Part shown: piece by piece, positions 9,215 to 31,483 of the stretch
Layout: each line of letters begins with the position of its first letter
How positions within the stretch are numbered: position 1 is the first letter of the stretch
Notes under the pieces: generated by a model
Told to the model about the DNA's origin: nothing
The model's database searches: none
What the model saw: only the letters and a program-made list of their open reading frames with translations
Position numbers and translations under genes: made by a program
Assembly: GCA_964432765.1 (NCBI GenBank)
Contig: CAYSOT010000002.1
Location: 38,220-102,219, forward strand
Direction of reading: 5' to 3'
Length of the DNA: 64,000 nucleotides
Origin: an uncultured Candidatus Saccharibacteria bacterium
GTDB lineage: Bacteria > Patescibacteriota > SICC01 > CAYSOT01

Positions 9215-11153
9215 CAACAAAACAAGCCAGTATCGCAAGCAGTGAGATTACATTTGGGATTGCCAAATACCACGGTGGTCGGTAGGAAATCTCTAGCTTC
9301 GAAACCTCCCCTGGTGCACTTAGCTGTAGAGTCGCGAGACTCGATTCTCGAGTTGCCAAACTGCGGCCGTCAGCCTTAGCACGTAACCACGGATGGTATG
9401 AAATTGCCAAGGACTGGTCACTTGTCATGATTGTTCCCTTTGGAAATTCGATGACATATTTATTTGGCGTGTATGCGGCACTAAGCGGTACATATCCCGC
9501 CGAGAAACCAAATGGCTGTACACTCTCTCCGAGATCGAAGATGGCAAACTGCTTTCCGGAAAATACCGGGGAGAGGTCCGGCATGTACGCGAGTTCATTA
9601 GCGGTACGTGGATTCGTCGTAACTATGTAGCGCACGCCTCGCTGGCGGAGTTGGGGTAGCTGTTCGCGCAGATACAGTGTCTGCGTAAGCGCTGACGCTG
9701 TTGTCACAGGCCCTTCTGCCGCCTTAGTCCCCTCGGGAAAATTTCCATCAAGATCCCAAATATTTTCATTTAGTAACGGTAAGCGCTGGTTTGCAAAATG
9801 AGGACTACCAAGCGGTATCCGACTATCCCAGTTGAATTCACTCAAAATAAACTCGCCGGGTCGCATATTTTCTTGCAAAAAGTTATTAACCTCGCGGATC
9901 TCACCTGTCAGGGAGTTGTCGGGCACAACACGAACAAATCCCCGCTTTTCATCGAGCGTTGGAAATACCACCAAGAACAGCAGAGAGACTACGGCAGCGG
10001 TGTAGACCGGAGCAACAACGCCAAAACTTGCATAGCGACGGGCGATCACCCAGATTTCGTAGATCCCGTAGGCCGCCAAGATCATCATTAGCCAAGCGAA
10101 GAAGGCATGGAAACGAATAAATTGCGAAGATGCAACTACCGATGAAAACGGGAGTGCGGCATTGATGATATTTAAGGAAAGCAGCAGGGAGAACAGCAGC
10201 GTTCCGGCGAAGAACCCAAAAAGACGCCACTTGCGATGCAATGCCATCGATCCTAGTCCGATGAGAGCGAGTAGCGAAATCGTTATTCCGCCGAAGTCTT
10301 CAGCAAGCACGAGCCCTTTCAATAGTTCGCCAAATGACTGCTGCTGAAGAGAACCGGTTGCCCCCCGGAAGCTTTCAGTCATTAATAATGGTGCCCACCA
10401 GTACGCGGAAACGGCAAGTGCTATCAAAACGATTGTCAGATATCTTTTTATGATTCGTGATGGGTTTTGATTGGCTATAGCGTGGCTTGCCAGCAGGGTA
10501 AGCGAGGCGAGCGCCCACCAGTACGCGGAAAAGGTATGGCTTAGGATGAGGCCGCCCGAAATAAGGCCCGTCATGATCAATTGCCGTCTACCACGATCCG
10601 GATCGTCTAGCTCTCGCTGCATCCGACCAAGGGCCCAGATGGCCATGATGAAACCTAGACCATTTGGCAAAAGCCCGACACCATACAATGCGCCAAGACC
10701 AAGCCCAAACGATGCGTTTAGAGCCAGCAGCAAGGTCGTACCGAGAGCAGCGAAGAAGCGAGGGAGCTTAAAACTTCTCAGAAAATAGTAGGTGACTGGT
10801 ACAAGTCCAATCCACAGCGCTGCCGTGAATATCCTCAGTGCGAGTTCCGCTGGAAATACGAGCGTCAGTGGTCCGAGCAAGTAATAAAGAAGCGGCGGGT
10901 AAAACTGAAACAGCTCAAAACCGCCGTGCCAATTCGGAAACCAGCCGTTTAACAGCCCGCTTGGCAACAATGTGTGGGCAAAAAAGTATGCTTTCAGTAG
11001 GTGCCCGCCTGCATCCCAGCCAGCAAGAAAGCCACTATTTGAAAGGGACGGCCAAATCGCCGCCAGCATTACACCGATCGTTCCACCAAGAATGGCATAT
11101 GCCGAAACCTGTTCCTGGAATCGACGATTTCTTAACTGGCTCATTAAACGCAT
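9135..11153 (-). CDS. Large polytopic membrane protein. The many-TM N-terminal half, extracytoplasmic domain and C-terminal anchor TM resemble a GT-C/YfhO-like architecture.
   Basis: Roughly 670 aa with many hydrophobic helices at the N-terminus (GWDAGGHLLKAYFF..., GWFPNWHGGFELFQFYPP). A soluble domain follows, then a final TM and a basic tail. The ORF track start (11201) overlaps the valS start. The internal Met at MRLMSQLRNRRF (11153) is more plausible. The 3' end overlaps the tsaD 3' end convergently by 80 nt. Confidence 0.55.
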   Translation of the reverse strand: MRLMSQLRNRRFQEQVSAYAILGGTIGVMLAAIWPSLSNSGFLAGWDAGGHLLKAYFFAHTLLPSGLLNGWFPNWHGGFELFQFYPPLLYYLLGPLTLVFPAELALRIFTAALWIGLVPVTYYFLRSFKLPRFFAALGTTLLLALNASFGLGLGALYGVGLLPNGLGFIMAIWALGRMQRELDDPDRGRRQLIMTGLISGGLILSHTFSAYWWALASLTLLASHAIANQNPSRIIKRYLTIVLIALAVSAYWWAPLLMTESFRGATGSLQQQSFGELLKGLVLAEDFGGITISLLALIGLGSMALHRKWRLFGFFAGTLLFSLLLSLNIINAALPFSSVVASSQFIRFHAFFAWLMMILAAYGIYEIWVIARRYASFGVVAPVYTAAVVSLLFLVVFPTLDEKRGFVRVVPDNSLTGEIREVNNFLQENMRPGEFILSEFNWDSRIPLGSPHFANQRLPLLNENIWDLDGNFPEGTKAAEGPVTTASALTQTLYLREQLPQLRQRGVRYIVTTNPRTANELAYMPDLSPVFSGKQFAIFDLGESVQPFGFSAGYVPLSAAYTPNKYVIEFPKGTIMTSDQSLAISYHPWLRAKADGRSLATRESSLATLQLSAPGEVSKLEISYRPPWYLAIPNVISLLAILACFVVILLPRRHRSNVKDRLRSQKARRKPR

Positions 11154-11194
11154 GCTCCCAGCATACCAAGCGGTAACTCCCAAGCCGCGATACA

Positions 11195-13816
11195 ATGACA
11201 AACGTGAAAGAGCTACCTAAAGCATATGATCCAATAGCGACTGAAGAAGCCGTCTATAGGCGCTGGGAAGATGCAAACTCTTTCAAGCCACTGACCGACC
11301 GGGATCCTAGTCTGGCGGCGAGCACACAGCCATACACCATCATCATGCCGCCGCCGAACGCTACCGGCAGACTTCACACTGGTCACGCAATTATGGTTGC
11401 AATCGAAGACGCACTGATTCGTTATCACCGCATGCGAGGTGACGATACGCTTTATCTGCCTGGCACTGACCACGCCGCGATTGCGACGAGCAGTGTGGTT
11501 GACCGTCAACTTGCCCAGGAAGGCATAGACAAACATGACCTCGGCAAAGAAGAGTTTGCGAAGCGCGCGAAGGCATTTGCGCTCGATAATAAGGCGTATA
11601 TAGAAGATCAACTTCGGGCGCTCGGTGCTTCGGCTGATTGGAGTCGTAATGCGTTCACGATGGACGAGAAGCGGGAAGAAGCCGTCAGAACTGCATTTCA
11701 TCGGCTCTATGAAAAGGGTCTAATCTACCGTGGCTCGTACATGGTTAATTGGTGTCCAACATGTCGAACGGTACTCGCTGACGACGAGGTTGAGCATACC
11801 GAACAAGAAGGTGTCCTTTATTACATGAAGTATGGTCCGTTCGAACTTGCGACAACGAGACCCGAAACGAAAGTTGGCGATACGGCGGTCGCAGTACATC
11901 CAGACGATACGCGTTATACGAAATATGTTGGCAAAGAAATCACAGTTAAAACGATTAACGGTGATCGTGAGTTGCGCGTGGTAGCAGACGAAATGGTCGA
12001 TCCTGAATTCGGAACGGGCGTCGTCAAGATCACTCCCTTCCATGATCAAAATGACTATGAGGTTTCAAAAAGGCATCACCTTGAAGCTATCGAGGTAATT
12101 GGAGAAGACGGCAAAATGACCGAGGCTGCAGGGCCCGACCTTGCCGGCCTGGATCGATTCGAAGCGCGCAGCAAGATGGTTGCCTGGCTCAAAGAAAACG
12201 ATCTTCTAATTCGGGAGGAGCTTCACCACAATTCGGTCGGACGCTGCTACCGCAGTGATGATGTCATCGAACCGCGAATTTCAAAGCAGTGGTTCTTGGC
12301 AGTTTCAAAATTGAAAAAGCCGGCACTTGAATTTGTTGATTCCGGGCAGCTTTCATTTGTGCCAAAACGTTTTGAAAAAACATACCGCGCCTGGATTGAG
12401 AATTTGTACGACTGGTGCATTTCACGCCAAGTATGGTTTGGGCATCCACTACCGGTGTACCTAAAGGGCGATGAGGTTTCACTCGAGCCAAAGGATGGAT
12501 TTACCGCATCAACAGATACTCTCGATACCTGGTTTTCATCTGCCCTGTGGCCATTCTCCACTATGGGCTGGCCAGACACCGACGCCCCTGATTTCAAACG
12601 ATTCTTCCCGGGTGATGTGCTCGAAACTGGCTACGACATCATTCCATTTTGGGTTTCTCGAATGATCTTGATGACGATCGCGCTTGATGTACGCAGCGCC
12701 AAAGAAGGTTCACTGCAACCGCCTTTCCATACCACCTACCTCCACGGACTCGTGCGAGATAAGCGGGGGCGCAAGTTTTCGAAGTCGCTTGGCAACGGGG
12801 TGGATCCGCTTGAACTGATTGGAAAATACGGGGCTGATTCACTCAGGTTCATGTTGGCAACCTCAGCATCGCCCGGGAACGACTTAAAGTTCGATGAGGA
12901 CCGTGTGGTTGCAGCACGTAACTTTGCCAATAAGCTCTGGAATATTGCTCGCTTCTGCATCGCTCAAGAGCTGCCACAAGAACCACTTACGAAGCTTCCC
13001 GAAGAAGCTCTAACAGCAATGGACAAGGGAATTCTCTCCAAGCTTGCGCACATCGTTAAACAAACCACAAAACACCTCGAGGAACATCAGCTGGGCTTGG
13101 CTGGCAACGGACTCTACGACTTTATTTGGTCGGACTTTGCTGACTGGTACGTCGAAGCCGCCAAAGTGCAGCTTCGAAATGAAGACACGGCACACTCCAC
13201 GAAAATTATCCTTAGAAACGTGCTTGAGACTGTTCTAAAACTACTTCACCCCTTTATGCCCTTTGTAAGTGAAACCATTTGGTCTGAAGGGCTTGGGCAA
13301 AAAGAAATGCTTATCCTCACCAAGTGGCCAGAAGAAACAAAAGAGTATGATGCCGCTAACTACGAGCTCGTTAAGGGCGTCATCGAGACTATTCGCAGTC
13401 TGCGAGCAGAAAAGCGCGTCGAGGCAGCCGCCTGGATTCAAGCTCACCTTGTGACAGAGAATCCGGAAGTTTTGTTAGATTCTGCCGATGTAATTAATGC
13501 GCTCGGTCGTATTAAAATACTCAAGGTGTCGATGGATCTTCCAGATACCAGCGAGGCGGTAACCGCGGTCCACGGACCAGTTACGGTTATTCTGCCTATG
13601 GCTGGTCTGCTTGATACTTCCAAAGAGGCTGACCGTTTACAGAAAGAGCTTGAGCGCGCCACAATGGAAGTTGAGCGACTACAAGGTCGACTCGACAACA
13701 AGCAGTATGTCAGCAAAGCTCCAGCCAGCGTCGTCGCCGAAACGAAGGAAAAGCTTGCCTCCGCCAAGGAGGAAAGGCAAACAATCGAAGAGCAGCTCGC
13801 GCGCCTTACACGCTAA
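11195..13816 (+). CDS. valS: Valyl-tRNA synthetase.
   Basis: 873 aa with the HIGH-class motif PNATGRLHTGHA, KMSKS-class KFSKSLGNG, and a C-terminal coiled coil typical of ValS. Confidence 0.95.
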   Translation: MTNVKELPKAYDPIATEEAVYRRWEDANSFKPLTDRDPSLAASTQPYTIIMPPPNATGRLHTGHAIMVAIEDALIRYHRMRGDDTLYLPGTDHAAIATSSVVDRQLAQEGIDKHDLGKEEFAKRAKAFALDNKAYIEDQLRALGASADWSRNAFTMDEKREEAVRTAFHRLYEKGLIYRGSYMVNWCPTCRTVLADDEVEHTEQEGVLYYMKYGPFELATTRPETKVGDTAVAVHPDDTRYTKYVGKEITVKTINGDRELRVVADEMVDPEFGTGVVKITPFHDQNDYEVSKRHHLEAIEVIGEDGKMTEAAGPDLAGLDRFEARSKMVAWLKENDLLIREELHHNSVGRCYRSDDVIEPRISKQWFLAVSKLKKPALEFVDSGQLSFVPKRFEKTYRAWIENLYDWCISRQVWFGHPLPVYLKGDEVSLEPKDGFTASTDTLDTWFSSALWPFSTMGWPDTDAPDFKRFFPGDVLETGYDIIPFWVSRMILMTIALDVRSAKEGSLQPPFHTTYLHGLVRDKRGRKFSKSLGNGVDPLELIGKYGADSLRFMLATSASPGNDLKFDEDRVVAARNFANKLWNIARFCIAQELPQEPLTKLPEEALTAMDKGILSKLAHIVKQTTKHLEEHQLGLAGNGLYDFIWSDFADWYVEAAKVQLRNEDTAHSTKIILRNVLETVLKLLHPFMPFVSETIWSEGLGQKEMLILTKWPEETKEYDAANYELVKGVIETIRSLRAEKRVEAAAWIQAHLVTENPEVLLDSADVINALGRIKILKVSMDLPDTSEAVTAVHGPVTVILPMAGLLDTSKEADRLQKELERATMEVERLQGRLDNKQYVSKAPASVVAETKEKLASAKEERQTIEEQLARLTR

Positions 13817-20684: not shown

Positions 20685-22478
20685 ATGGTTCGTCATATGT
20701 CGAACCAGCCAAGTGAAAATCCTAGGAGTATCGGACACGCGGATGCTGAAATCAAAGCAGCTGTGTCTTTGCCCGAAGAAGAGCAGCGAATCGATCTCGC
20801 ACTGGTTTCTCGCTATGGCGAAGGTGATTTTGCAGCCCTAGAAGTGCTTGCCGAGCGCTACCAAGAGCTTCTAAAGGGCGCTTATCCGGCCATAACTACC
20901 GATGAGGTTCCGCCACAATTTGTGCTTTTTGAGCAAGCTGCCAGGACATACCGCGAAAAGATGGGAATCCCATTCTCTGAATGGGCCCAGCGGGTAGTGA
21001 CGCGCGAAGGAGTAAGTCCTGATACAAACGAACTACCAACCGACGAGGTAAAAAGCCTTGTGGCTGAGCTTGCAGATGTTAATGGGAAACAGAAAATACG
21101 GTATGTGCTGGCTACGCCCCTCGCCGACAAGTTAGCCGCCATGGAGCAAGAGATCATGTGGCGGCCGTATTTTGCGGAAAAACTTCAGGGGCAAGATTGG
21201 TATCAGACTGCGAGCGATTCAGTACAGCGTTCGGCACTGCGTCAGTTTGTACTACGACTTGGTGAAATTAGCCGTATGAGCGCTGTACATCAACCTGACG
21301 GCAAAGTTACCCCGATGCGCACGTTTGATACGACTACAATGGGTCTTGTTTGTGATCAGCTTTTTGAAATTGAGCTGCCAACAATCCAGAAAGAGGCTCT
21401 TGAGAAACCGAGTAATTCTAGACAAAAAGCCTCTTCGACAGCTGTAGAAAAGGGCACTTCGCACGAGCCTGCCTCGATACTCGAAGGAGAAATTCCCGCC
21501 TTAACCCGCAGCGGCGAGAAAATCAAAGAAAAGCTCGCTCAGGTATTGCCCACTATGATTGGTATGTATCAGGAAGGGGGCAATAAGCCGTCCATACACG
21601 ATCTTTTGCGAGTTGATGGCCGGGCACAATACCAGTTTGCCCATCTGGGCATTCTTGAAGCACTTCGGGACTTTGGTGTCTTCTCAGAGAACGAGCTCGC
21701 TGAGCTTTCGGGCAGAAGCACAGGAGATGACGTTGCTAGAGACATAGAGCTTTTTCGAAGGTCCACCGGACACGACGAACGAACGCGTTTCCTGCACTCT
21801 TTTAATTACGAACGCTTGAAGGAGCTTATCGAAGCGGCTTCGCCCGAGCATACAAGGGAGCTGCTTGAGCGATACGGTCAGAAGTACGCGAAAGAACGTC
21901 CCGAACCGTCAATACAAACGATCATATCGCGCAGGAGAGAGCTCGAGCGCAAAGCTCGACGCTCTAAGGGCAAACCAAAAAGAAAGCGGTCAGCGCGCAA
22001 GATGCCACTGCCTGAAGACGAGCCGCTCACAACGATAATCGAGGTTTCTCCTGAATCGCAGCGCTATGCGGAGGTATTTTTGTCGCTCGTCGACGCAGGC
22101 CTTCGATCAACACAGGGACACCCCTCCAATATCGAGAAGGAGGTCATTGCCAATGAGCTTACGCCGCTTCTGGATAGAGTAGTCGGCGTCGAATCCGATT
22201 TAGAAAACGCCCTTGAGAAATCGTTAATACGGACTGCCAGAAAAGAGGTCTCAAAATTCGTCAGGCTCGCTATCCGCATCGAGACATCAATCAACTCGGA
22301 GCTTGCGGCCGCACGGGAAGCGCTTCCGAGTAATTTTACTGGGCTCAGCGAGCCACAGAGACTTCAAGTCTACCGGCTTTTCATACGACACGTTGGACAA
22401 AATATGCGTCGCAGTCCGATTTCGCAACTTGAGCGTCGACAATTTTTTGACGGTGTCGAAAAGCGACTTGCTGCCTAG
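20685..22478 (+). CDS. Large hypothetical protein of 597 aa.
   Basis: Complete ORF 18 nt downstream of the sigma factor. The N-terminus (LALVSRYGEGDFAALEVLAERYQELLKG) is reminiscent of sigma region 2.1, but nothing else is recognisable. There is a basic KRKRSARK patch. Confidence 0.6.
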   Translation: MVRHMSNQPSENPRSIGHADAEIKAAVSLPEEEQRIDLALVSRYGEGDFAALEVLAERYQELLKGAYPAITTDEVPPQFVLFEQAARTYREKMGIPFSEWAQRVVTREGVSPDTNELPTDEVKSLVAELADVNGKQKIRYVLATPLADKLAAMEQEIMWRPYFAEKLQGQDWYQTASDSVQRSALRQFVLRLGEISRMSAVHQPDGKVTPMRTFDTTTMGLVCDQLFEIELPTIQKEALEKPSNSRQKASSTAVEKGTSHEPASILEGEIPALTRSGEKIKEKLAQVLPTMIGMYQEGGNKPSIHDLLRVDGRAQYQFAHLGILEALRDFGVFSENELAELSGRSTGDDVARDIELFRRSTGHDERTRFLHSFNYERLKELIEAASPEHTRELLERYGQKYAKERPEPSIQTIISRRRELERKARRSKGKPKRKRSARKMPLPEDEPLTTIIEVSPESQRYAEVFLSLVDAGLRSTQGHPSNIEKEVIANELTPLLDRVVGVESDLENALEKSLIRTARKEVSKFVRLAIRIETSINSELAAAREALPSNFTGLSEPQRLQVYRLFIRHVGQNMRRSPISQLERRQFFDGVEKRLAA

Positions 22479-22643: not shown

Positions 22644-23141
22644 GTGAAACACAAGGCACAACTAATCACCATCTTTACGATTTCGATCGGCTTAACAGCG
22701 GCTGTGATCTTTGCCGGGTGGAAGTTGAACGAAAACCTCACAGCCACACCACAACAATCAGCTACACCTGCCCCTTCGGCAACCACAGTAGTGGCCAATC
22801 CAATTGAAGCCAGCCAAGACGATTCCCAAAGGCGAATTCATATAACCTCATATCGTGACGCGCTCCAGAAGTACGGCACAGAAGTTGGCGTGTACCCCGT
22901 TTCGGATACGCCCATTCAAATGAAAGCCGATACACTTCCGTTCACTGCTTTAGCGGGAACATATTTGCCAACTTTCTTAGATGACCCCAGATCCTCAGAT
23001 GGAAGATCATATTACTACGTTGCGACCCAGGCAAAATTCGCTATCTGCGCCAACTTGGCCAGCAAACCTGGATCGCGCTTTGTTGGTTCACCGGATGGAA
23101 CACGCGAGGAGCAAGGAAGCGCCAAGACGTGTACACTATAG
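22644..23141 (+). CDS. Membrane-anchored hypothetical protein (GTG start).
   Basis: 165 aa with N-terminal TM LITIFTISIGLTAAVIFAGW, followed by a Thr/Pro-rich linker. Confidence 0.5.
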   Translation: MKHKAQLITIFTISIGLTAAVIFAGWKLNENLTATPQQSATPAPSATTVVANPIEASQDDSQRRIHITSYRDALQKYGTEVGVYPVSDTPIQMKADTLPFTALAGTYLPTFLDDPRSSDGRSYYYVATQAKFAICANLASKPGSRFVGSPDGTREEQGSAKTCTL

Positions 23142-23151
23142 GCAAACAAAA

Positions 23152-24582
23152 ATGGCTGACAATAATACAGACAATTTGAAATTCGACGTGAGTTATTCTG
23201 CTGACAACCAGCCGAATGCTGGCACGAGTGAGGCCGCTGCTTCAAGCACTCAAGCTGAAGCCCCGCCGCAGCCTGCACCTGCAGCAGACACTCCAAATCC
23301 ATCTTCCCAACCAAGCCACGTGCCACCAAGTAACCCATCCCGAACTAGCGGGGCTTTAAAGAAGGTTCTGGGTATTACTGCGATAGCGGCCGCGATTTTC
23401 GTTCTAGGAGGCGCTGCCTACTATTTCTTGGCGCCAAGCCCCGCCCGTGTGATGGCTAAGATGGCTAAGAAGTTCCCTGAAATAAAGTCGGCCCGGTTTG
23501 GGACCGACTATTCTCTGCTAGTAAAAGAAAAAATAGACTGCAGATATAGATCCAGTTCGTCCAGTGCCACTATATCGCTAGCGGCTCAGACTAATCCATC
23601 GGAGGGATCTTCACCGAGCCCGTCCAGCACCTTAAAGTCTCCCGATTGCAACAATAATGAAACCAGTGACTATCAGATTGATGCCAAGACAAACCTTGCC
23701 GTAAACACCCAAGATATTAAAACGCCAAAGCTTGGGGCCTCACTGGACCTAACGGCAAAGATTAACGGTGAATCCTATAGAGCTGCTGGCGAATTACGAA
23801 CGCTTGGTCAGACGGGCTACGGAAAGATAGACCAGATCCCTTCGCTAGGTGACGTAACCAGTGAATTAGAAAAGATTAAAGGGATTTGGATTAAGTTCGA
23901 CCTTGATCAATCAGATTCAAAAGGGGCCTCTCTTTCTCAAGATCAGCTCGATCGTGTTCGAGATGCTATTCGGACCTCTCAAGCCGTTAAGGTTACCAAG
24001 TCTCTCAAGAGTGAGCAGCTCGACGGTCAAGCCATGTATCACTATCAGTTCAGCATTAATAAAGATGCACTTGTCGACACGCTCGCCAAACTTACTGAGG
24101 TCACCGGCGAAAAGCCTTCGGCGGACGATATAAAGAAAGCAAAAGAGGACCTAAAGGACGTAAAGTTCAAAGACGGAGAAATTTGGATTGGAAAAAAAGA
24201 TTTACTACCCCACAAGATATCTCTGGCACTTGAAGCATCAAACGATTCGACAGGATCGCTCAGCTTAACCACCGCTACAACCCTCAAAGACGTTAATAAA
24301 GATGTTTCGGTTACAGCGCCTGAGAAATGGAAAACCGTCGAAGAGGTTGAGCGAATCTTGAGTGATGATGCCGATGGTGACGGCCTGTCCGCCACAGAAG
24401 AAAGAACGTACGGGACAGATCCAAACAAGGCCGACACTGATGGTGATGGTTTTAGCGACGGCGATGAAGTCTCCGGTGGATTCAACCCGAAAGGTCCTGG
24501 AAAATTAATCGATGAAGAGCCGGTTCCGGTAATTGATGACACTCCTTCCGATACGCCGGAAGATACCTATCCAACCCTTTAG
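23152..24582 (+). CDS. Membrane-anchored surface protein with a proline-rich linker and C-terminal thrombospondin-type-3-like calcium-binding repeats.
   Basis: The ORF track starts at 22981 inside the previous gene. The ATG at 23152 (MADNNTDN) is the likely start. TM at LGITAIAAAIFVLGGAAYYFL. Near the C-terminus are DADGDGLSATEE and DTDGDGFSDGDE, which are DxDxDG repeats. Confidence 0.6.
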   Translation: MADNNTDNLKFDVSYSADNQPNAGTSEAAASSTQAEAPPQPAPAADTPNPSSQPSHVPPSNPSRTSGALKKVLGITAIAAAIFVLGGAAYYFLAPSPARVMAKMAKKFPEIKSARFGTDYSLLVKEKIDCRYRSSSSSATISLAAQTNPSEGSSPSPSSTLKSPDCNNNETSDYQIDAKTNLAVNTQDIKTPKLGASLDLTAKINGESYRAAGELRTLGQTGYGKIDQIPSLGDVTSELEKIKGIWIKFDLDQSDSKGASLSQDQLDRVRDAIRTSQAVKVTKSLKSEQLDGQAMYHYQFSINKDALVDTLAKLTEVTGEKPSADDIKKAKEDLKDVKFKDGEIWIGKKDLLPHKISLALEASNDSTGSLSLTTATTLKDVNKDVSVTAPEKWKTVEEVERILSDDADGDGLSATEERTYGTDPNKADTDGDGFSDGDEVSGGFNPKGPGKLIDEEPVPVIDDTPSDTPEDTYPTL

Positions 24583-24658
24583 CTGATTGAGTCAGATATG
24601 CGCCCCCGGTATGCTTAGTGGTGGCAATGCTTAACAATAGCTGGCTTCACCAGCACAC

Positions 24659-24747
24659 GGAGAGGTACCCAAGAGGCTGAAGGGGCGGGATTGCTAATCC
24701 TGTAGGTCGGAGTAATCCGGCGCGAGAGTTCGAATCTCTCCCTCTCC
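24659..24747 (+). tRNA. tRNA-Ser (anticodon GCT), class II.
   Basis: GGAGAGGTACCCAAGAGGCTGAAGGGGCGGGATTGCTAATCC...GAGTTCGAATCTCTCCCTCTCCG. The anticodon loop TTGCTAA gives anticodon GCU. Long variable arm. Confidence 0.85.
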
Positions 24748-24809
24748 GCATGACGCATTCCAGTGCGCTCTAGCGACAACGAGCACGCTAACAATGACAC
24801 CTCCACAGC

Positions 24810-24838
24810 TTGACAAAGCACATAAAAAGTGCTATGTT
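24810..24838 (+). promoter_or_regulatory. Sigma-70-type promoter: TTGACA, 17-nt spacer, TATGTT.
   Basis: Consensus -35 TTGACA at ~24810-24815 and -10 TATGTT at ~24833-24838 with exactly 17-nt spacing. It lies about 27 nt upstream of the ATG at 24865. Confidence 0.5.
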
Positions 24839-24864
24839 ATGACAATTCTGAAAAACGAAGCGTG

Positions 24865-25407
24865 ATGCCTACTAACCCTGACATAAAGACAGATGAAGTT
24901 CTTGAAGGCGGTGCTGAGCCGATCCTTTCTTGGGAAGCGAAAGAATTTGCCGAATACGCCAGAGACAAGCGGTGGTATACGCTCGTGCTTGGCGGCGGAA
25001 TTCTCCTAACAATCGGGGCAGTCGCACTTGCGCTCTTGAGCAACACGTTGCGAGATGGCCTAAGTTACGGCCTCGTTGCGGCGGTCTTCGCGCTTGGCAC
25101 TTATGTTGTTCTTAAACATGCCGACGATACCCCACGCATGCTGACATACTCTATTTCGAAACTTGGGATAACCGTTGGAGATACGTTTCATCCATACGGT
25201 GAGCTTCGACAATATTGGTTGATTTACAAACCGCCGGTACGAACGCTTCACATCCAGCGGGTTAATCGCTACAAGCCTATCTTGAGAGTCGACATTGCTG
25301 ACGTCGACCCGCTCGCCATCCGCGAAGCACTTAAAAACTACCTACCTGAAGATACAAAGAGAGCTGAGGATTTTCTGGATAGGTTCTCGCGATTCATTAG
25401 GCTTTAG
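24865..25407 (+). CDS. Hypothetical membrane protein with two TM helices.
   Basis: The ORF-track start (24829) lies inside the promoter -10 region. The in-frame ATG at 24865 (MPTNPDIK) is preferred. TM helices at WYTLVLGGGILLTIGAVALALL and GLVAAVFALGTYVVL. Confidence 0.55.
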   Translation: MPTNPDIKTDEVLEGGAEPILSWEAKEFAEYARDKRWYTLVLGGGILLTIGAVALALLSNTLRDGLSYGLVAAVFALGTYVVLKHADDTPRMLTYSISKLGITVGDTFHPYGELRQYWLIYKPPVRTLHIQRVNRYKPILRVDIADVDPLAIREALKNYLPEDTKRAEDFLDRFSRFIRL

Positions 25408-25415
25408 GAGAAACA

Positions 25416-25901
25416 ATGACACACCGCACGCCAGATACCGAACATCCTCTTCCCGAAGGAGCAGATGTCCAACATGCTGAAGCTTTGCGCCCTCGTATAT
25501 CCGAAAGTTTTATCAAGCAAGGCGTACGGCTTGATCAACTTCAGAATGAAGCCGGGTTTGAGAATGGTGTGCGTTTGGCTGCCTCTAGAATACGGCTTGG
25601 CATCGGCAATACAGAGTTTAGAATTCAGCAGCTCAGGCCTCCAGATGTTGAAGAGGCATTTCACCTACAGGTTCCTGAAGGGGTTGCGCTCATTACACAT
25701 GACCCAAAACAAGATGCGTATCAACCAATTACGCCTATTCTCATCCCCTCGGGCGAAAGTATGGTGCTTGGGCGAGAAACCGTTGCTGGCCTAAAAGCAG
25801 ATCCTGAAGTTTCTAGGCAGCATGTCGAGGTTGGCTGCACTGAGGACGGAGAGGTTTGGCTTAAGCATGTCGGCACAACAAATGGCACACGCCTTTCATA
25901 G
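25416..25901 (+). CDS. FHA (forkhead-associated) domain protein.
   Basis: The C-terminal 70 aa match the FHA core LGRE...SRQHVEV...G...W.L.H.GTTNGTRL (conserved G-R, S-R/Q-H, N-G-T). The N-terminal roughly 90 aa are low complexity. Confidence 0.7.
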   Translation: MTHRTPDTEHPLPEGADVQHAEALRPRISESFIKQGVRLDQLQNEAGFENGVRLAASRIRLGIGNTEFRIQQLRPPDVEEAFHLQVPEGVALITHDPKQDAYQPITPILIPSGESMVLGRETVAGLKADPEVSRQHVEVGCTEDGEVWLKHVGTTNGTRLS

Positions 25902-25909
25902 GAGAAACC

Positions 25910-26218
25910 ATGGCAGCACCTGACGCATTTTCAGAATTTACCCCTCCGGCCGCGGAGGCATCGCGAGGAGCAGAAGGCCCAGCAGACGAGCGTTGGAGCA
26001 ACGTAAACGAAACGCTGGCGTATCTTGAGGCAACCGGAAAACAAGACATAGCTTCGGGTATTCGCAAGGCCGCAGAGCTTCTGGGAGAGGGAAACCCCGA
26101 GCAAGAACTTGGTGCTTTTGAGATTCTTTGCAAAACCATCCCGCAATTTGAGTCCGGCGAGTCAGAGTTGACCCCCAAGGCAGCCGCCGGCGAATCCGAT
26201 GCTGAAGACCTGAAGTAG
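25910..26218 (+). CDS. Small acidic hypothetical protein of 102 aa.
   Basis: Complete ORF 9 nt after the FHA gene and probably co-transcribed with it. Confidence 0.45.
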   Translation: MAAPDAFSEFTPPAAEASRGAEGPADERWSNVNETLAYLEATGKQDIASGIRKAAELLGEGNPEQELGAFEILCKTIPQFESGESELTPKAAAGESDAEDLK

Positions 26219-26261: not shown

Positions 26262-26334
26262 GCGCCTGTAGCTCAGTGGATAGAGCGTCGGCTTGCGGAG
26301 CCGGAAGTCGAAGGTTCGAATCCTTCCAGGCGCG
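26262..26334 (+). tRNA. tRNA-Arg (anticodon GCG).
   Basis: GCGCCTGTAGCTCAGTGGATAGAGCGTCGGCTTGCGGAGCCGGAAGTCGAAGGTTCGAATCCTTCCAGGCGCG. The cloverleaf folds cleanly. The anticodon loop UUGCGGA puts G-C-G at positions 34-36. Confidence 0.8.
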
Positions 26335-26378
26335 CAGTACCTACCCTGAAGCAGTCGTGGCTGCGACCCCATAATTAC

Positions 26379-26451
26379 GTCCTCGTAGCTCAGTGGATAG
26401 AGCACTGGCTTCCGGAGCCAGGTGTCGGGGGTTCGAATCCCTCCGAGGACG
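26379..26451 (+). tRNA. tRNA-Arg (anticodon CCG).
   Basis: GTCCTCGTAGCTCAGTGGATAGAGCACTGGCTTCCGGAGCCAGGTGTCGGGGGTTCGAATCCCTCCGAGGACG. The anticodon loop UUCCGGA gives anticodon CCG. Confidence 0.85.
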
Positions 26452-26497
26452 CATGAATAGTGTTTAGCACGGTGCGCAGCTCGGCTATACTTGTGCC

Positions 26498-27148
26498 ATG
26501 AACAAATACTCGCTTTCTATAAGGGCGGCTTATTCTTCTCTCATATTGGGTCTGTTTTCTTTAGTTCTTAGCTTTCTTCTCTGCCCCTCTGAATCCTGCT
26601 CAAACGCCGACGAAGTAATCGTGTTGTCATTTCTGCTGGGCCTTCTGGCAATTTTTGGTCTTGTCGTCGCTGCTATCACGGCGCTCCTAACCGCCCTACC
26701 AGGAACTAATCGTTTTGTCCCTCTTGTATTGTTTGGCCTTGGAATCTTTCTTTTTGTCCTAAAAGTGGTCGATTCATCGATAGCCTGCGAATCTGCACAT
26801 TACACTCTTGGTAGCGGAGGTTGTGCCAATCCCCCAGTACGCGTACATGTTTATGGATGGCTTAGCCTCTTTGCGTTTTTGGGCGGCATATCTTGGCTAT
26901 TTCTATCAAAATTCTGGAAAACGAAGTTTCTTGCGCCCATCATTACTGGATTGACAGGGCTAACGATTCTCCTTGTCAGTATCGGTATTCATGACGACTG
27001 TAAGCACAGAATACGCCCGCTTAGTATGATTTATGAGCCAGAACCTTGCGTACAGGAGCAGCTCGGCAGTATTGGAATAGTTCTTGGGATTGCTCTTTTA
27101 CTAACCTCAGCGCCAACGGCCTTTTTTATCGCACGTTCGGGTAAATGA
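26498..27148 (+). CDS. Cys-containing polytopic membrane protein, hypothetical.
   Basis: 216 aa with about six hydrophobic helices. Several Cys pairs sit in the loops (CPSESC, CESAHYTLGSGGC, DDCKH...PEPC). Confidence 0.55.
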   Translation: MNKYSLSIRAAYSSLILGLFSLVLSFLLCPSESCSNADEVIVLSFLLGLLAIFGLVVAAITALLTALPGTNRFVPLVLFGLGIFLFVLKVVDSSIACESAHYTLGSGGCANPPVRVHVYGWLSLFAFLGGISWLFLSKFWKTKFLAPIITGLTGLTILLVSIGIHDDCKHRIRPLSMIYEPEPCVQEQLGSIGIVLGIALLLTSAPTAFFIARSGK

Positions 27149-27249
27149 TTTTTCACACGGCACATACGCAGCAGTAGGAAACGTCAAATACAAAGTTAGA
27201 TCGGTCGCCTATAACTGTAAATATCGCTATACTAAGCGGTTACTTATTT

Positions 27250-30200
27250 ATGGATACGGAACTTACAGGCTGGGTAGAAAGTGCGCCGGAGGCGACTGAA
27301 GCGATTGTCGATCGGGCCGTCAGGTCGCATTTGCTTGAACATCCAGAATATCTACTACCACTCTGTTTCGAGTTTGAAGAATACGAAACCTACGGTGCGC
27401 TCGATGCGCTCGATATTTCAGCCCATGATCTGGCTAGGCTACCTCTTGGAGTTACGATTGAAAGAATTCCCGGGACAAACCAGCAGAGACTCTTCCGAAC
27501 AGAGCCCGAACATCACGATATGCGGTTGTGGGCTGAAGATGGTGTAGACATTCCAAATCGCGCATCAGCAGTTGACCTTCTTGCGATCCAATACCTTCTT
27601 GATACAACAAGGCCTTCGGGCAAACCGGGACATTTCGACTACACTCCAAACACCGTTCCGGGCGGTTTAGCTAAACCGCGTGAAGTCACAGAAAAAGACA
27701 TCCAAGAGATTTTTAATATTGCCAAAGAGGCACTCTTTGAAGTTGGCTACTCGCTTAATAAGTACGGCAGGCCTTTAATTGAAGAGGCTCAGAATCTGCG
27801 TGACCAAAGACATCCGGAGCTAGCAGGTTCAATTACGTTCCACGAGGAGCTTCTAGAGTTGCTCGAAAAGGGAGGGATTTTAGCGAGGAAGGTCGTCTAT
27901 GGCAAGCCGATCAAATTTGCCATCGACATAGTAACAACAGAACCACAGCGTGTGGCTGCGCTCGTGGATGAGCATCGCGTACACGGCGATCCAGTACTCG
28001 ACTTTACGGGATTCATTAAGAAATCTGTATCCAAAGATCCCGAATTTCAGCAGCATATTCTAGAACCGACAGAGCCTGGACTCGCGCTTGATCTTGATAT
28101 GACCTACTCACCACTCTTTCAGCGCCACATAACCCATGAGTCGTTTGGGAGAGTCACACCGCGAGAGTTGTATGCCGCAGCAGAATGGGCGATCGGCGAC
28201 CAGCTCGCAAAAGCAGCTCTTAGCAAGACCCCCGAATGGGCCGAGGTGCTAGCAAGAGAAAAACCTCTCTTTTATACCCACGACGGTATCAGGTTTGACG
28301 CTAGCCGAGTTGCCCTTGCCTTCTTCACAGTCGGTGCGGAAAAAACCGTCGAACTCCTCGTAGCCGCGGAAGATCGAGAAATTATGCTCGATGGAATTCA
28401 TGAGATGGTACGCCTTGGTAAAGACGCTGTGCTCCGTGAAGCTGGCCTCGAGCAGGCGTCAGAAATTTACCGTGCTGGTCTCATTAAGCGAAGCGGACTA
28501 GATGGTGCTGTTAGGTTTCTTTGGTTCAGCATGACCCGAGTTACGAAATTCCCCCACACTCCTTTTACCGAAGAGCATATTCGGCTTGAGAGGGAACAAG
28601 CAAAGGAGGAGCAGCGCAGGCGCCAACCCAAACTTTACATCGATAATGAGTTAGTTCATCTGCGCTGCGTGCAGATTTTTGAACGGGCCAAGCGCATTTA
28701 TGATATTAATCCGAGCATCTTCCCGAACCTTGGCTCCACAGACACGTTTGAGCAATATCTAACGCGGCAGATACTCTACCCCACGTCGCAAGATAGTCGA
28801 AAGCTTGAGTGGCTTGTTTTTGATGTCGATGTACCCCGAGTTGATGAGGAAACTATCTGTCGCGTTTTAGCTGAAAACGCCCACGTTGTAACCGAATTAC
28901 TTGAGCGAAGGATTTCTGAAAGCGTGTTGGAAGATGGCCTAAGCGAAGAGCGACGCGCTGCGATTCTGCATGACTTTGAGGTCCAGTTTGGTCCAGAGAT
29001 GCGGCAAGAAGCTCAAGCGCTGGTGGTCGACTTAGTAGAAGGGAACGATCTAGTCCTTGCGTTTGAGGGTTTAAAGCAGGCTGCTTTCGTTACGGAACTT
29101 TTTCGAGCAGCGGCTGATAATATCCAGATACCGCGGGAGCGTTTGCTAAAACGGCTCATTGAGAAATCAGCAGAAGTGTATGGAATTGACGCGACCGAGA
29201 TCGAATCGGCCATAACCCCGCAAGAGCTGTTATTCTATTTTGAACACGCGGAGCGCATCAGCGCACTGCGACACTCAACCACTCTGCCAGAGACAGCAGG
29301 ATGGCGAACGGCGAGCAAACCTCGTCCAATCAAAACTCCAGCCGATGAAATATGCTCGTTTGAAGATCTTCACCGAGCGAGACACCTTACTCACCAAACA
29401 GAGCTGGGCCAAGCCTACTACGTAGCAGCTGCACTGTTGCTCGGCCGAAAGACTATCGACAGCTTCTTGTCTCCATCCAGAAAGCGTCTCGGTTTAGTTA
29501 ACGGCGGCCACTATGAAGAGGTCTTGGGCTGGGTAGACTATGCAGTAAAGCTTTCTCCCGAAAACTTGACCGCTGTTCTCGAATCAATTGACTCGGATGT
29601 TGAACAGTTCGAACTTTCTATATATCTGACAAAATATGAACCTGAAAATGATCAACTAGCACAGCGTGGTCCGATTCGCTCGATTCGAGAGCTCAAAGTC
29701 CGCGTCGAGGCTCTAGGGAGAGACTTTTCAGCAATCAAGGACAGGCGCGCCTGGGATGTACTTTCTAAAACACCGGGTATGGACTTCGCAGCGCTCGAGG
29801 AAATGTGCGGACAGAGGGAATTCCACGAGCTGCTCCGTGGAGACTTCGACGCATTCCAACCCTTTTCATCATTCGAGGTGCTGGTTGCTCCAAAGCACGA
29901 TGTAGCAACAATCGTACAAACGTCGCTTGGGTCTAGAAAAAACAATACTCCAGGAACGGCCGCCGACCCGGCAAAGCTTTATCATGACCTCAAACACCTT
30001 ATGAAACGCCGTGGCGTCACTGGATCCCCTGCGGATTTATTTGAATCGGTTCCAAAACAGATAGAAGCAGAAGTGCTCGAGCTTGTACGAGGGCAGGATT
30101 CATACCAAGAAGAGTCAACCGGGCCACTCTACAGGGCAACGCTTCACGACAAATCAGATCCTCTTGGTTGGGTTTGTGGAAATTACACCGATTGCTGCAT

Positions 30201-30588
30201 GCCGTTTGGGCGAAGCCTCAATACAGACTACATGTTCAATCCGGACACGCAGTATTTTACGATTCGACGTAACGGTAGAATCATTGCACAATCAGTCGTT
30301 ATTGCCGCCCAAGACGCAGGCACACATGAGCCAGTTGTTGTGCTTGATGGCCTAGAAATTGCTAACAACTACCGCCATCTTCGCGAAGACATTATCGCCG
30401 TGTACCGAAAGGTCTGGGGTGATACATACGACGGGAAGCCTGTGCTGATTGGGACGTTCCGCAAGGAACACCCGATTACCAGAGAGCCGTACGAAGCATC
30501 AGTTTCCGAGCACTATATTTCGCGTAGTGGCAGCATTGGTTATACCGACGCTTGGGGCTACTTCCTCTTCCCCTTTACGCCATCCTGA
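27250..30588 (+). CDS. Very large orphan hypothetical protein (1112 aa). No signal peptide or TM segment recognised.
   Basis: Single uninterrupted ORF preceded by a possible -10 TATACT. No family-defining motifs recognised. The C-terminal roughly 180 aa contain a Cys cluster WVCGNYTDCCMPFG and conserved-looking aromatics. Confidence 0.7.
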   Translation: MDTELTGWVESAPEATEAIVDRAVRSHLLEHPEYLLPLCFEFEEYETYGALDALDISAHDLARLPLGVTIERIPGTNQQRLFRTEPEHHDMRLWAEDGVDIPNRASAVDLLAIQYLLDTTRPSGKPGHFDYTPNTVPGGLAKPREVTEKDIQEIFNIAKEALFEVGYSLNKYGRPLIEEAQNLRDQRHPELAGSITFHEELLELLEKGGILARKVVYGKPIKFAIDIVTTEPQRVAALVDEHRVHGDPVLDFTGFIKKSVSKDPEFQQHILEPTEPGLALDLDMTYSPLFQRHITHESFGRVTPRELYAAAEWAIGDQLAKAALSKTPEWAEVLAREKPLFYTHDGIRFDASRVALAFFTVGAEKTVELLVAAEDREIMLDGIHEMVRLGKDAVLREAGLEQASEIYRAGLIKRSGLDGAVRFLWFSMTRVTKFPHTPFTEEHIRLEREQAKEEQRRRQPKLYIDNELVHLRCVQIFERAKRIYDINPSIFPNLGSTDTFEQYLTRQILYPTSQDSRKLEWLVFDVDVPRVDEETICRVLAENAHVVTELLERRISESVLEDGLSEERRAAILHDFEVQFGPEMRQEAQALVVDLVEGNDLVLAFEGLKQAAFVTELFRAAADNIQIPRERLLKRLIEKSAEVYGIDATEIESAITPQELLFYFEHAERISALRHSTTLPETAGWRTASKPRPIKTPADEICSFEDLHRARHLTHQTELGQAYYVAAALLLGRKTIDSFLSPSRKRLGLVNGGHYEEVLGWVDYAVKLSPENLTAVLESIDSDVEQFELSIYLTKYEPENDQLAQRGPIRSIRELKVRVEALGRDFSAIKDRRAWDVLSKTPGMDFAALEEMCGQREFHELLRGDFDAFQPFSSFEVLVAPKHDVATIVQTSLGSRKNNTPGTAADPAKLYHDLKHLMKRRGVTGSPADLFESVPKQIEAEVLELVRGQDSYQEESTGPLYRATLHDKSDPLGWVCGNYTDCCMPFGRSLNTDYMFNPDTQYFTIRRNGRIIAQSVVIAAQDAGTHEPVVVLDGLEIANNYRHLREDIIAVYRKVWGDTYDGKPVLIGTFRKEHPITREPYEASVSEHYISRSGSIGYTDAWGYFLFPFTPS

Positions 30589-30845
30589 CTTTTTCTAATC
30601 GCGCTGAAGTGCCACCATGGAAGGCGTTCTCCCGAGTTGATGAAATGAATGGCCGCCGCGAAAACATCTTCCACACACGGATCGTGTCGTCTTCCAGTCT
30701 TGGCACACAGTGCGAGGTACAGTGAATTCGCTGACTTACCCGACAGCTCATTGGGCGTCGCTATACCTAGTAGGGCCAGGTCTGCGGCAGTTGCTTTTCC
30801 AACATTCGGAATGTCGGTGAGTTTGTGGGCTAGTGAAGCCATCAA
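30558..30845 (-). CDS. Small helix-hairpin-helix DNA-binding protein, TfoX C-terminal-domain-like.
   Basis: 95 aa containing LTDIPNVGKATAADLALLGIATPNEL (an HhH motif) followed by HDPCVEDVFAAAIHF, a pattern typical of the TfoX_C / competence-associated HhH domain. The 3' end overlaps the 1112-aa ORF convergently by 31 nt. Confidence 0.5.
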   Translation of the reverse strand: MMASLAHKLTDIPNVGKATAADLALLGIATPNELSGKSANSLYLALCAKTGRRHDPCVEDVFAAAIHFINSGERLPWWHFSAIRKSQDGVKGKRK

Positions 30846-30862
30846 CTACACTATAGAGGTTT

Positions 30863-30952
30863 GGAGAGGTGCCGGAGTGGACGAACGGGGCGGTCTCGAA
30901 AACCGTTAGGCCCGCAAGGGTCTCGAGGGTTCGAATCCCTCCCTCTCCGCCA
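30863..30952 (+). tRNA. tRNA-Ser (anticodon CGA), class II, with encoded 3' CCA.
   Basis: GGAGAGGTGCCGGAGTGGACGAACGGGGCGGTCTCGAAAACCG...GGGTTCGAATCCCTCCCTCTCCGCCA. The anticodon loop CTCGAAA gives anticodon CGA. Its 3' half is almost identical to that of the tRNA-Ser(TGA) at 22.5 kb. Confidence 0.85.
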
Positions 30953-31036: not shown

Positions 31037-31483
31037 ATGAAACACATACACTTAGAAGGCTCCTGGGTGATAAAGGCCCCACTTCGAAAAGTTTTTGACG
31101 TAGTTACCGATTTCGAAAAAATGCCCGAGCATTTTCCGGCTATTGCTGAGTCGCTCCATATCGTAAAGCGCGATGGTAATACTCTAACTATCGATGCGAG
31201 GGCAAAATCTTTTGGCAGATCGTTTCCTGTGAAAATGAAAACTACGATCATCCCCGGAAAGGGTTTTATTTCTGATAATCAGAGTCAGAAGTTTGGCACA
31301 TCGGGGCACGAGGAAATGATGCTCGAAAAGGTACCGACAGGCACAAAGGTTAACTATGTTTACGAGGTAACTATTCATAAGCCGCTGCTGCGCATTGTGG
31401 CAAAACCTCTTATTGGTTTCTTTGCGATGAGAATGTGGAAGCGTGCGTTCATAGACAAACTAAAAGAGCTTCTGGAAACGTAG
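31037..31483 (+). CDS. SRPBCC-superfamily protein (polyketide cyclase/dehydrase-like, START/Bet v 1 fold).
   Basis: 148 aa with the typical opening IKAPLRKVFDVVTDFEKMPEHFP and overall length and pattern of Polyketide_cyc2-type ligand-binding proteins. Confidence 0.6.
   Translation: MKHIHLEGSWVIKAPLRKVFDVVTDFEKMPEHFPAIAESLHIVKRDGNTLTIDARAKSFGRSFPVKMKTTIIPGKGFISDNQSQKFGTSGHEEMMLEKVPTGTKVNYVYEVTIHKPLLRIVAKPLIGFFAMRMWKRAFIDKLKELLET

Follow-up and report, generated by a model that had tools for sequence, protein, structure and literature searches.

The gene and its locus

This report concerns a gene for a 1112-residue protein (27250..30588, plus strand) in a 64-kb stretch of DNA, here called the window, from contig CAYSOT010000002.1 of an uncultured Candidatus Saccharibacteria bacterium. 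The open reading frame (ORF) is complete in the ORF list, with an ATG start and a TGA stop, and its product has two parts: an N-terminal region (residues 1-839; 27250..29766, plus strand), which an AlphaFold2 model renders as almost all helix, and a C-terminal unit of about 270 residues, which is predicted to be a very divergent GNAT-fold domain. By sequence similarity this C-terminal unit defines a large unannotated family that extends across nearly all classes of Patescibacteria.

The gene is the largest ORF of the window, the runner-up being that of DNA polymerase I (PolA, 936 aa). The protein has a mass of 126 kDa and an isoelectric point (pI) of 5.2, so the initial annotation was right about its size and about the helical, acidic character of its N-terminal part. 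It contains no transmembrane (TM)-like segment (the top 19-residue Kyte-Doolittle mean is 1.49), and composition and hydropathy, used here in place of a dedicated signal-peptide predictor, reveal no signal-like N-terminus, this end of the protein being acidic and free of hydrophobic stretches. Internal repeats, for which a check had been proposed, are absent by self-BLASTP and TRF.

An orthologue of 1111 aa (P0002), found on five contigs from at least three samples, is 74% identical to the window protein and collinear with it, with one single-residue gap. On the contig L001, which carries P0002, gene order around the locus is the same and all five tRNA genes are kept; the valyl-tRNA synthetase (ValRS) of this syntenic relative is 85% identical to that of the window, and ValRS identity to named Patescibacteria relatives is about 59-70%, the closest of them (59-64%) all labelled "Patescibacteria group bacterium", by which the organism is judged to belong to the Patescibacteria. 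A further full-length homologue (P0003) is 31% identical over residues 20-1112. Between the window protein and P0002 the nonsynonymous divergence (dN) is 0.18 and the synonymous divergence (dS) is saturated; constraint is strongest in residues 1-100 (dN 0.043) and 901-1112 (dN 0.08-0.12). These comparisons indicate a real, functional gene under strong purifying selection along its entire length, as had been argued from the cost of so long a gene. Because the orthologues are intact, the locus is syntenic and dN is 0.18 against a saturated dS, the gene is not a fusion or frameshift artefact, an outcome that the initial annotation had allowed for.

ARAGORN and Rfam both place the tRNA genes said to flank the gene: tRNA-Arg(gcg) at 26262-26335 and tRNA-Arg(ccg) at 26379-26452, in tandem, and tRNA-Ser(cga) at 30863-30952. 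Apart from two single-gene indels that adjoin tRNA genes, the locus is the same in the window and L001. The first is an ORF for a 216-aa protein with multiple TM segments (26498-27148, plus strand), which follows tRNA-Arg(ccg); the second is an SRPBCC/Polyketide_cyc2 ORF (31037-31483, plus strand), which follows tRNA-Ser(cga). GC content around the 1112-residue gene is 0.49-0.51, matching the flanks, and Pfam detects no integrase, transposase or other mobility gene among the neighbours. The description of the region as an accessory segment is therefore unsupported, since GC equals that of the flanks, mobility genes are lacking and only two single-gene indels separate it from L001; it does not have the look of a tRNA-associated island either, with ordinary GC, no mobility genes and a syntenic locus (direct repeats at its borders were not searched). 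The window is chromosomal DNA, with housekeeping genes that include those for PolA, ValRS, a PilB-type ATPase, a Mur ligase, SpoIID, VanW and glycosyltransferases. Nor is the gene surrounded only by hypothetical and membrane proteins, as had been stated: its neighbours include FHA, SRPBCC, DUF1801 and TSP3-repeat proteins (Pfam).

A TATACT hexamer (27228..27233, plus strand), also present in L001, lies 17 nt upstream of the ATG and is, by its resemblance to the consensus, a putative −10 element; no obvious Shine-Dalgarno-like sequence is found between the two, and the 5′ untranslated region would have to be very short. A GCTATACT box stands before both the 216-aa membrane ORF and the 1112-residue gene, which suggests that a promoter region may have been duplicated along with the insertion.

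At its 3′ end the gene overlaps a convergent ORF of 95 aa (30558..30845, minus strand) by exactly 31 nt, as had been reported, and the overlap is the same in L001. This neighbour had been described as a TfoX_C-like helix-hairpin-helix protein; the helix-hairpin-helix part stands, but the family is Cdd1 (PF11731; E = 2e-29, 102 bits against a cut-off of 25.5), the TfoX_C score of 19.7 bits falling below the Pfam cut-off of 23.1. The Cdd1 gene adjoins the family gene only in the closest relative (L001-L003) and not beside members in 80 other genomes, and a functional link between the two, which co-occurrence might have indicated, was rejected on account of this limited adjacency.

Lineage-specific genes that are kept in L001 occupy 22981-26218 (plus strand), on the 5′ side of the tRNA-Arg pair; their products are 533 aa (with bacterial TSP3 repeats, which bind calcium), 192 aa (a candidate membrane protein with only weak, sub-threshold Pfam matches), 161 aa (with part of an FHA domain) and 102 aa (acidic) in length. 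Two other ORFs of the window have no Pfam match at E≤1e-5, one for 688 aa (9135-11201, minus strand), which abuts the start of ValRS, and one for 597 aa (20685-22478, plus strand).

The C-terminal domain and its conserved residues

The AlphaFold2 model of residues 840-1112, built on a 23-sequence alignment, has a mean predicted local distance difference test score (pLDDT) of 90 and a predicted TM-score (pTM) of 0.88. It comprises a helical subdomain (residues 840-954; 29767..30111, plus strand; pLDDT about 93) that packs with a divergent GNAT-fold core (residues 955-1112; 30112..30585, plus strand). GNAT cores have the topology β1-α1-α2-β2-β3-β4-α3-β5 and a P-loop motif, Q/R-x-x-G-x-G/A (PMC8556138). 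DSSP finds the same order of elements over residues 961-1069 in two AlphaFold2 models of the protein: β1 (961-965), α1 (971-979), α2 (989-996), β2 (1000-1007), β3 (1010-1022), β4 (1028-1037), α3 (1039-1056) and β5 (1063-1069), followed by terminal strands at 1089-1091 and 1105-1108. The top 50 Foldseek matches to the domain model are all GNATs, the nearest being acetyl-CoA (acetyl coenzyme A)-dependent N-acetyltransferases; among solved structures these are the N-terminal acetyltransferases NatD/Naa40 (4u9w) and RimI-type enzymes (7n1l), at sequence identities of 5-13%. Structures of Fem proteins, L/F-transferase, ATE1 and LuxI do not occur among the top 60 structural matches.

Searches of the full protein against Pfam, NCBIfam and PADLOC, and with phmmer against PDB sequences, give no match, in line with the earlier statement that it shows no recognisable catalytic, TM or secretion motif; at E≤1 the only Pfam match is a spurious β-propeller. 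The domain is thus not covered by Pfam or NCBIfam, and its GNAT fold assignment is absent from sequence libraries. The suggestion of a discrete and possibly enzymatic C-terminal domain is borne out by the model as regards a discrete domain, and is plausible as regards an enzyme in view of the near-invariant polar residues described below. Membership of a well-known family with a mundane role had been named as the finding that would deprive the domain of interest; the fold is indeed that of the well-known GNATs, but the domain matches none of the GNAT sequence models and is without the cofactor motif.

The signature of the domain is the loop WVCGNYTDCCMPFG (residues 974-987; 30169..30210, plus strand), which covers the end of α1 and the α1-α2 loop, the latter reading TDCCMPFGR. 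Its cysteines are at 976, 982 and 983, the codon of Cys983 occupying 30196-30198. Residue counts come from a 228-sequence domain alignment, in which 223-230 sequences cover each of the core positions and the family is otherwise only about 25-45% identical. Within the loop the conserved residues are C983 (228/228), G977 (227/228), T980 (225/228), M984 (224/230) and F986 (221/230); position 982 is Cys in 184/228 and position 976 is Ala in 160/228. The cysteine cluster singled out in the initial annotation is therefore present as a motif, but only one of its three cysteines is invariant. A metal-binding cluster was considered and rejected, with a single invariant Cys and no His at the listed near-invariant positions.

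Outside the loop, D1033 (227/228), E1036, S1015 and Y994 (226/228 each), Q1014 (224/228) and K968 (223/228) are nearly invariant. D1033 and E1036 lie in the β4-α3 junction PVVVLDGLEIANNYRHL (residues 1028-1044; 30331..30381, plus strand), which lacks the GNAT P-loop and reads LDGLEIANNY in the window protein and DN[IV]E[VI]AxN, a pattern free of glycine, in the family. The window protein has all of the family invariants (K968, S969, G977, T980, C983, M984, F986, Y994, Q1014, S1015, D1033, E1036 and G1068), each conserved in at least 219 of 223-230 sequences, S969 being the lowest (219/228). The helical subdomain has motifs of its own, D867, Q870 and L-G894-S-R...G902-x-A...K-L-Y/F, with D867 conserved in 201/202, G894 in 198/204 and G902 in 193/208. 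The signature motif string has no match in the literature searched.

The family, its architecture and its distribution

The family, called CCM-GNAT (CCM after the invariant Cys-Met signature), is defined by the alignment A3, whose hidden Markov model (HMM) matches the window protein at E = 2e-82. Searched exhaustively with HMMER, 1.84 billion representatives of 50%-identity clusters yield 295 at E≤1e-3, 150 at E≤1e-10 and 22 at E≤1e-30. The matches pile up on residues ~850-1075 of the window protein; some 20-27 closer relatives reach back to residue ~750 and fewer than 10 to residue ~650, and matches to the first 600 residues come solely from P0002, P0003 and, weakly, P0013. A word-indexed search with the full protein, which recovers only the protein itself and P0002, under-reports the family. 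The label of orphan accordingly holds for the N-terminal ~600-840 residues and fails for the C-terminal domain.

Scanning one genome per GTDB species with a single signature peptide taken from the domain alignment yields 89 loci; a contig scan based on the full-length alignment, for which N-terminal peptides were picked, yields none. The record titles of the 89 loci nearly all belong to the candidate phyla radiation (CPR): Saccharibacteria, Parcubacteria, Falkowbacteria, Nomurabacteria, Berkelbacteria, Magasanikbacteria, Dojkabacteria, Gracilibacteria, Peregrinibacteria, SR1, Uhrbacteria, Wolfebacteria, Komeilibacteria, Moraniibacteria, Doudnabacteria, Kerfeldbacteria, Buchananbacteria and others. 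A minority are titled Termititenax, Obscuribacterales, Bdellovibrionota or, in several automatically labelled metagenome-assembled genomes (MAGs), "Gammaproteobacteria". Thirteen contigs with typical members bear non-CPR titles (L008, L013, L016, L021, L024, L031, L045, L053, L060, L066, L067, L073 and L083), namely 'uncultured Gammaproteobacteria' or 'Pseudomonadales' (automatically labelled co-assembly MAGs) or 'Nanoarchaeota'. The titles of these contigs may be wrong or the bins contaminated, their proteins grouping with those of CPR-labelled genomes. In the source annotations members are a "hypothetical protein" or, in the case of two-domain members, a "GNAT superfamily N-acetyltransferase".

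Most members are two-domain proteins. The family ORF is typically 1100-1400 aa long among the fetched loci, with extremes of 2506 aa among the loci and 5715 aa among the representatives, and the CCM unit stands at about residues 800-1100, followed by 200-250 more residues. In several members Pfam identifies this tail as a canonical GNAT (PF00583, PF13508); the β4-loop of this second domain reads DLASDGxxRAGGSLI, a degenerate P-loop. Within the two-domain members the CCM core is the least variable 100-column block (1.61 bits versus 2.0-2.4 elsewhere). The CCM unit of the window protein, P0002 and L029 is followed by no more than 31-40 residues, and an HMM of the second domain has no match in any of the six translated frames of the window or in the L001 and L029 flanks; separate encoding of the second GNAT nearby was rejected for this reason. 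The window clade (the window protein, P0002 and P0003/L029) is thus a single-domain variant that has lost the second GNAT.

Departures from the usual architecture include P0029, a giant protein of 5715 aa with the CCM domain in mid-protein (residues ~2012-2206), and split family genes at L004 (5414-9344; 861+447 aa), L005 (5091-9251; 964+416 aa) and L006 (328-4488), in which the halves are adjacent same-strand ORFs 1-15 nt apart. Translation of the L005 and L006 loci under table 11 differs from the recorded protein, a mismatch that might point to a non-standard genetic code or to recoding of a stop codon.

No member of the family occurs in the viral contigs and phage records searched. The plasmid collection (the plasmid and phage search did not include E. 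coli genomes) gives a lone match, an 863-aa hypothetical protein of Alkaliphilus sp. B6464 on the circular, 435,827-bp pB6464 (NZ_CP058558.1; L087/L088), which retains the signature as AGDASVCCMSFG and DNVEI; a GNAT-looking N-terminus in this protein was not confirmed by Pfam. The gene set of pB6464 is unusual for a plasmid, encoding gyrB, a second topoisomerase subunit, secA, two sigma-70 factors, dnaX, SSB, PhoH, ParM, a prepilin peptidase and flagellin. A phage or mobile-element origin of the family was rejected, the viral-contig and phage searches giving no match and the only plasmid match lying on this unusual replicon.

Gene neighbourhoods are not conserved: there is no recurring operon, and the most frequent neighbour, EF-G, is present at 5 of ~80 loci. 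In other genomes the family genes have housekeeping genes around them (for example EF-G, Mur ligase, MraY and PGK), and no secretion genes recur beside them. Among 59 complete long members, 57 have neither a TM-like segment nor a signal-like N-terminus, and the median pI is 5.4. The window protein and the family are thus predicted to be cytoplasmic.

Within the N-terminal region, residues 17-134 (27298..27651, plus strand) form a conserved module that is the most constrained part outside the C-terminal domain; residues 1-100 are 94% identical to P0002, and the module also matches P0003 and P0013 (independent E-value 1.4e-6). A weak multi-stretch match of residues 47-96 to P0149 was discarded as a repeat-driven artefact (trypsin plus repeat protein). 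AlphaFold2 is confident for residues 110-280, 300-420 and 700-840 and poor for 427-625, and Foldseek finds no credible structural match for the N-terminal 840 residues. Judged by the reach of its sequence matches, the N-terminal region of ~600-840 residues is orphan, lineage-specific and fast-evolving; it is probably a scaffold or substrate-recognition part.

Proposed function and comparison with known systems

In GNATs the acyl group lies at the splay between β4 and β5, and the α1-α2 loop lines the acceptor site. With the structural model as guide, we tentatively read the 1112-residue protein as a cytoplasmic enzyme of Cys-assisted acyl transfer, its CCM domain borne on a lineage-specific helical scaffold, a proposal to which we give a little less than an even chance. 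The CCM domain would be the catalytic heart. By GNAT topology its α1-α2 loop would set Cys983 beside Asp1033 and Glu1036 at the end of β4; Cys983 would be either a nucleophile that forms a thioester intermediate or a thiol essential to the active site, and Asp/Glu would be the base. An acyl (probably acetyl) group would be moved to a conserved intracellular acceptor, possibly via the Cys-thioester, and the helical subdomain and N-terminal region would recruit or position the substrate. Because the canonical P-loop and helix α4 are missing, the donor would be bound non-canonically or, in the two-domain relatives, handed over by the neighbouring canonical GNAT. Acyl-CoA chemistry is favoured by the identity of the closest structures and by the fact that the domain is fused to a canonical GNAT in most members, and retention of the CCM core where the second GNAT has been lost counts for an active-site-like role. 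Catalysis, the part played by Cys983, the acyl donor and the acceptor are what we infer here. The bolder claim of a new GNAT-derived catalytic class, which would have shed the P-loop and helix α4 for a Cys983/Asp1033/Glu1036 active site and would perform a thioester-mediated, Patescibacteria-specific and possibly essential covalent modification of some conserved component of the cell, is doubtful; if it were true, the single-domain window clade would show that the chemistry of the new class can work without a canonical GNAT partner.

Several observations weigh against Cys-assisted acyl transfer. The P-loop pattern [QR]..G.[GA] has no match in the whole 1112-residue protein and none at the β4-α3 junction of 128 family cores, and helix α4 (motif B) is not formed, neither model having a helix of four or more residues after β5, where pLDDT is 63-83. 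Acetyl-CoA binding is doubtful because both of these CoA-binding elements are non-canonical. Curated GNAT sequence models (PF00583, PF13508 and others; NCBIfam) do not match, the A3 profile finds among PDB sequences only a spurious uL24 (E = 0.03), and hhalign detects no similarity between the CCM core and the second GNAT of the family beyond overlapping residues. The unconserved gene neighbourhoods yield no clue to an acceptor. Moreover, the window protein carries rare substitutions (N1034G, 3/228; F1055V, 3/226; D1073E, 9/223) and no second domain, and could have changed or lost an ancestral activity.

Absence of the P-loop from all members, together with the missing α4 and the lack of any GNAT HMM match, would also be expected of a pseudo-GNAT, in which the CCM domain, itself without catalytic activity, binds a specific ligand or protein or has a regulatory role. 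The canonical GNAT directly downstream in most relatives could then be the real enzyme, to which the CCM domain would present substrate in the manner of the inactive halves of tandem-GNATs, and the proteins of the window clade would be pure scaffolds or adaptors. An invariant Cys and near-invariant Asp, Glu, Lys, Ser, Gln and Tyr over 228 sequences at about 25% identity are, however, more typical of an active site, and the CCM core is better conserved than the canonical GNAT and is retained when the latter is lost; we consider a pseudo-GNAT unlikely, though it deserves serious attention.

The loss of acetyl-CoA motifs and the gain of a new invariant constellation of Cys, Asp, Glu and Lys can be read in a third way, as a GNAT scaffold repurposed with Cys983 as nucleophile for tRNA-dependent aminoacyl- or peptidyl-transfer, or for a thioester-dependent hydrolase, amidase or ligase acting on an envelope or protein substrate. 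Some GNAT-fold enzymes work without acetyl-CoA, FemX, L/F-transferase, ATE1 and LuxI among them. In most members the domain is nevertheless coupled to a canonical GNAT that presumably binds acetyl-CoA, which fits acyl-CoA better, and gene neighbourhoods show no link to peptidoglycan or tRNA genes beyond chance; the tRNA-dependent transferases FemABX, L/F-transferase and ATE1 give no Pfam match and are not among the closest structural neighbours. Such repurposing is distinctly unlikely.

The initial annotation thought of host or partner interaction, with the gene as part of an accessory island between tRNAs and its large product as a lineage-specific effector or surface protein. A host-interaction role has been proposed for CPR-enriched families (PMC6744442), the two small indels beside tRNAs are signs of local plasticity, and the N-terminal 600-840 residues evolve fast, P0003 being 31% identical where ValRS of named relatives is ~59-70% identical, although P0003 may come from a different organism. 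However, the idea is unsupported, as the window protein and 57 of 59 complete relatives have neither a signal peptide nor a TM segment; the locus is syntenic and of ordinary composition, with housekeeping genes around it and no integrase or mobility gene, family genes elsewhere are likewise placed among housekeeping genes, and viral contigs and phage records do not contain the domain, all of which makes an effector very improbable. That the ORF is a chance or artefactual one, as the split genes of distant members (L004, L005) might suggest, is effectively refuted by the same architecture in P0002 and P0003, by purifying selection over the full length and by AlphaFold2 models that are confident for most of the protein.

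With the GNAT superfamily the CCM core shares its topology, conserved acidic residues at the end of β4 and a conserved acceptor-side α1-α2 loop. Unlike GNATs, it lacks the P-loop in every member and helix α4, has an invariant Cys in the α1-α2 loop, and comes with an obligatory helical subdomain of ~115 residues in front, at the end of a protein of more than 1000 aa. Tandem-GNAT proteins are closer in architecture: clavulanate ORF14 (2wpw) and Legionella VipF (6wqb) are both among the structural neighbours of the CCM domain, and in most CCM family members, too, a canonical and a degenerate GNAT-fold domain stand in succession. MshD and Eis are further tandem-GNAT proteins. The CCM family differs from the tandem-GNATs in that its non-canonical domain is the better conserved one and the pair forms the C-terminal end of a helical protein of very large size; the window protein has the non-canonical domain only. 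The MYST acetyltransferases (Esa1/MOF) have an acetyl-CoA-type fold core with an active-site Cys and Glu, and a Cys-acetyl intermediate has been proposed for them; these enzymes keep the CoA-binding motif, have a zinc finger and carry the Cys in a different element from that of the CCM domain. No MYST structure is among the top matches to the CCM domain, and the analogy is one of mechanism only.

Patescibacteria make up a large share of bacterial diversity, have small genomes and contain many lineage-enriched genes that are unannotated. Of 106 published CPR-enriched families of unknown function, 76 have a TM helix, and most are membrane or extracellular proteins (Meheust et al. 2019, PMC6744442); unannotated families enriched in Patescibacteria are often essential in Saccharibacteria (Wang et al. 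2023, PMC10633639). The CCM family resembles such families in being widespread in CPR, rare elsewhere and annotated as hypothetical, and differs from most of them in being, by prediction, cytoplasmic. The CCM protein does not amount to a categorically new kind of system, and no evidence so far connects it with an episymbiotic way of life.

A 3.3-kb "orphan" has thus been reduced to a unit of ~270 residues with a confident model, a GNAT fold assignment and a set of candidate catalytic residues (C983, D1033, E1036, K968, S1015, Q1014 and Y994), and this unit occurs in hundreds of large cytoplasmic proteins across CPR, usually beside a canonical GNAT. The family model could annotate several hundred "hypothetical" proteins. 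If the CCM unit is an enzyme, it would represent a CPR-wide modification system; if it is a pseudo-enzyme, it would be a well-conserved degenerate GNAT under stronger constraint than its active partner.

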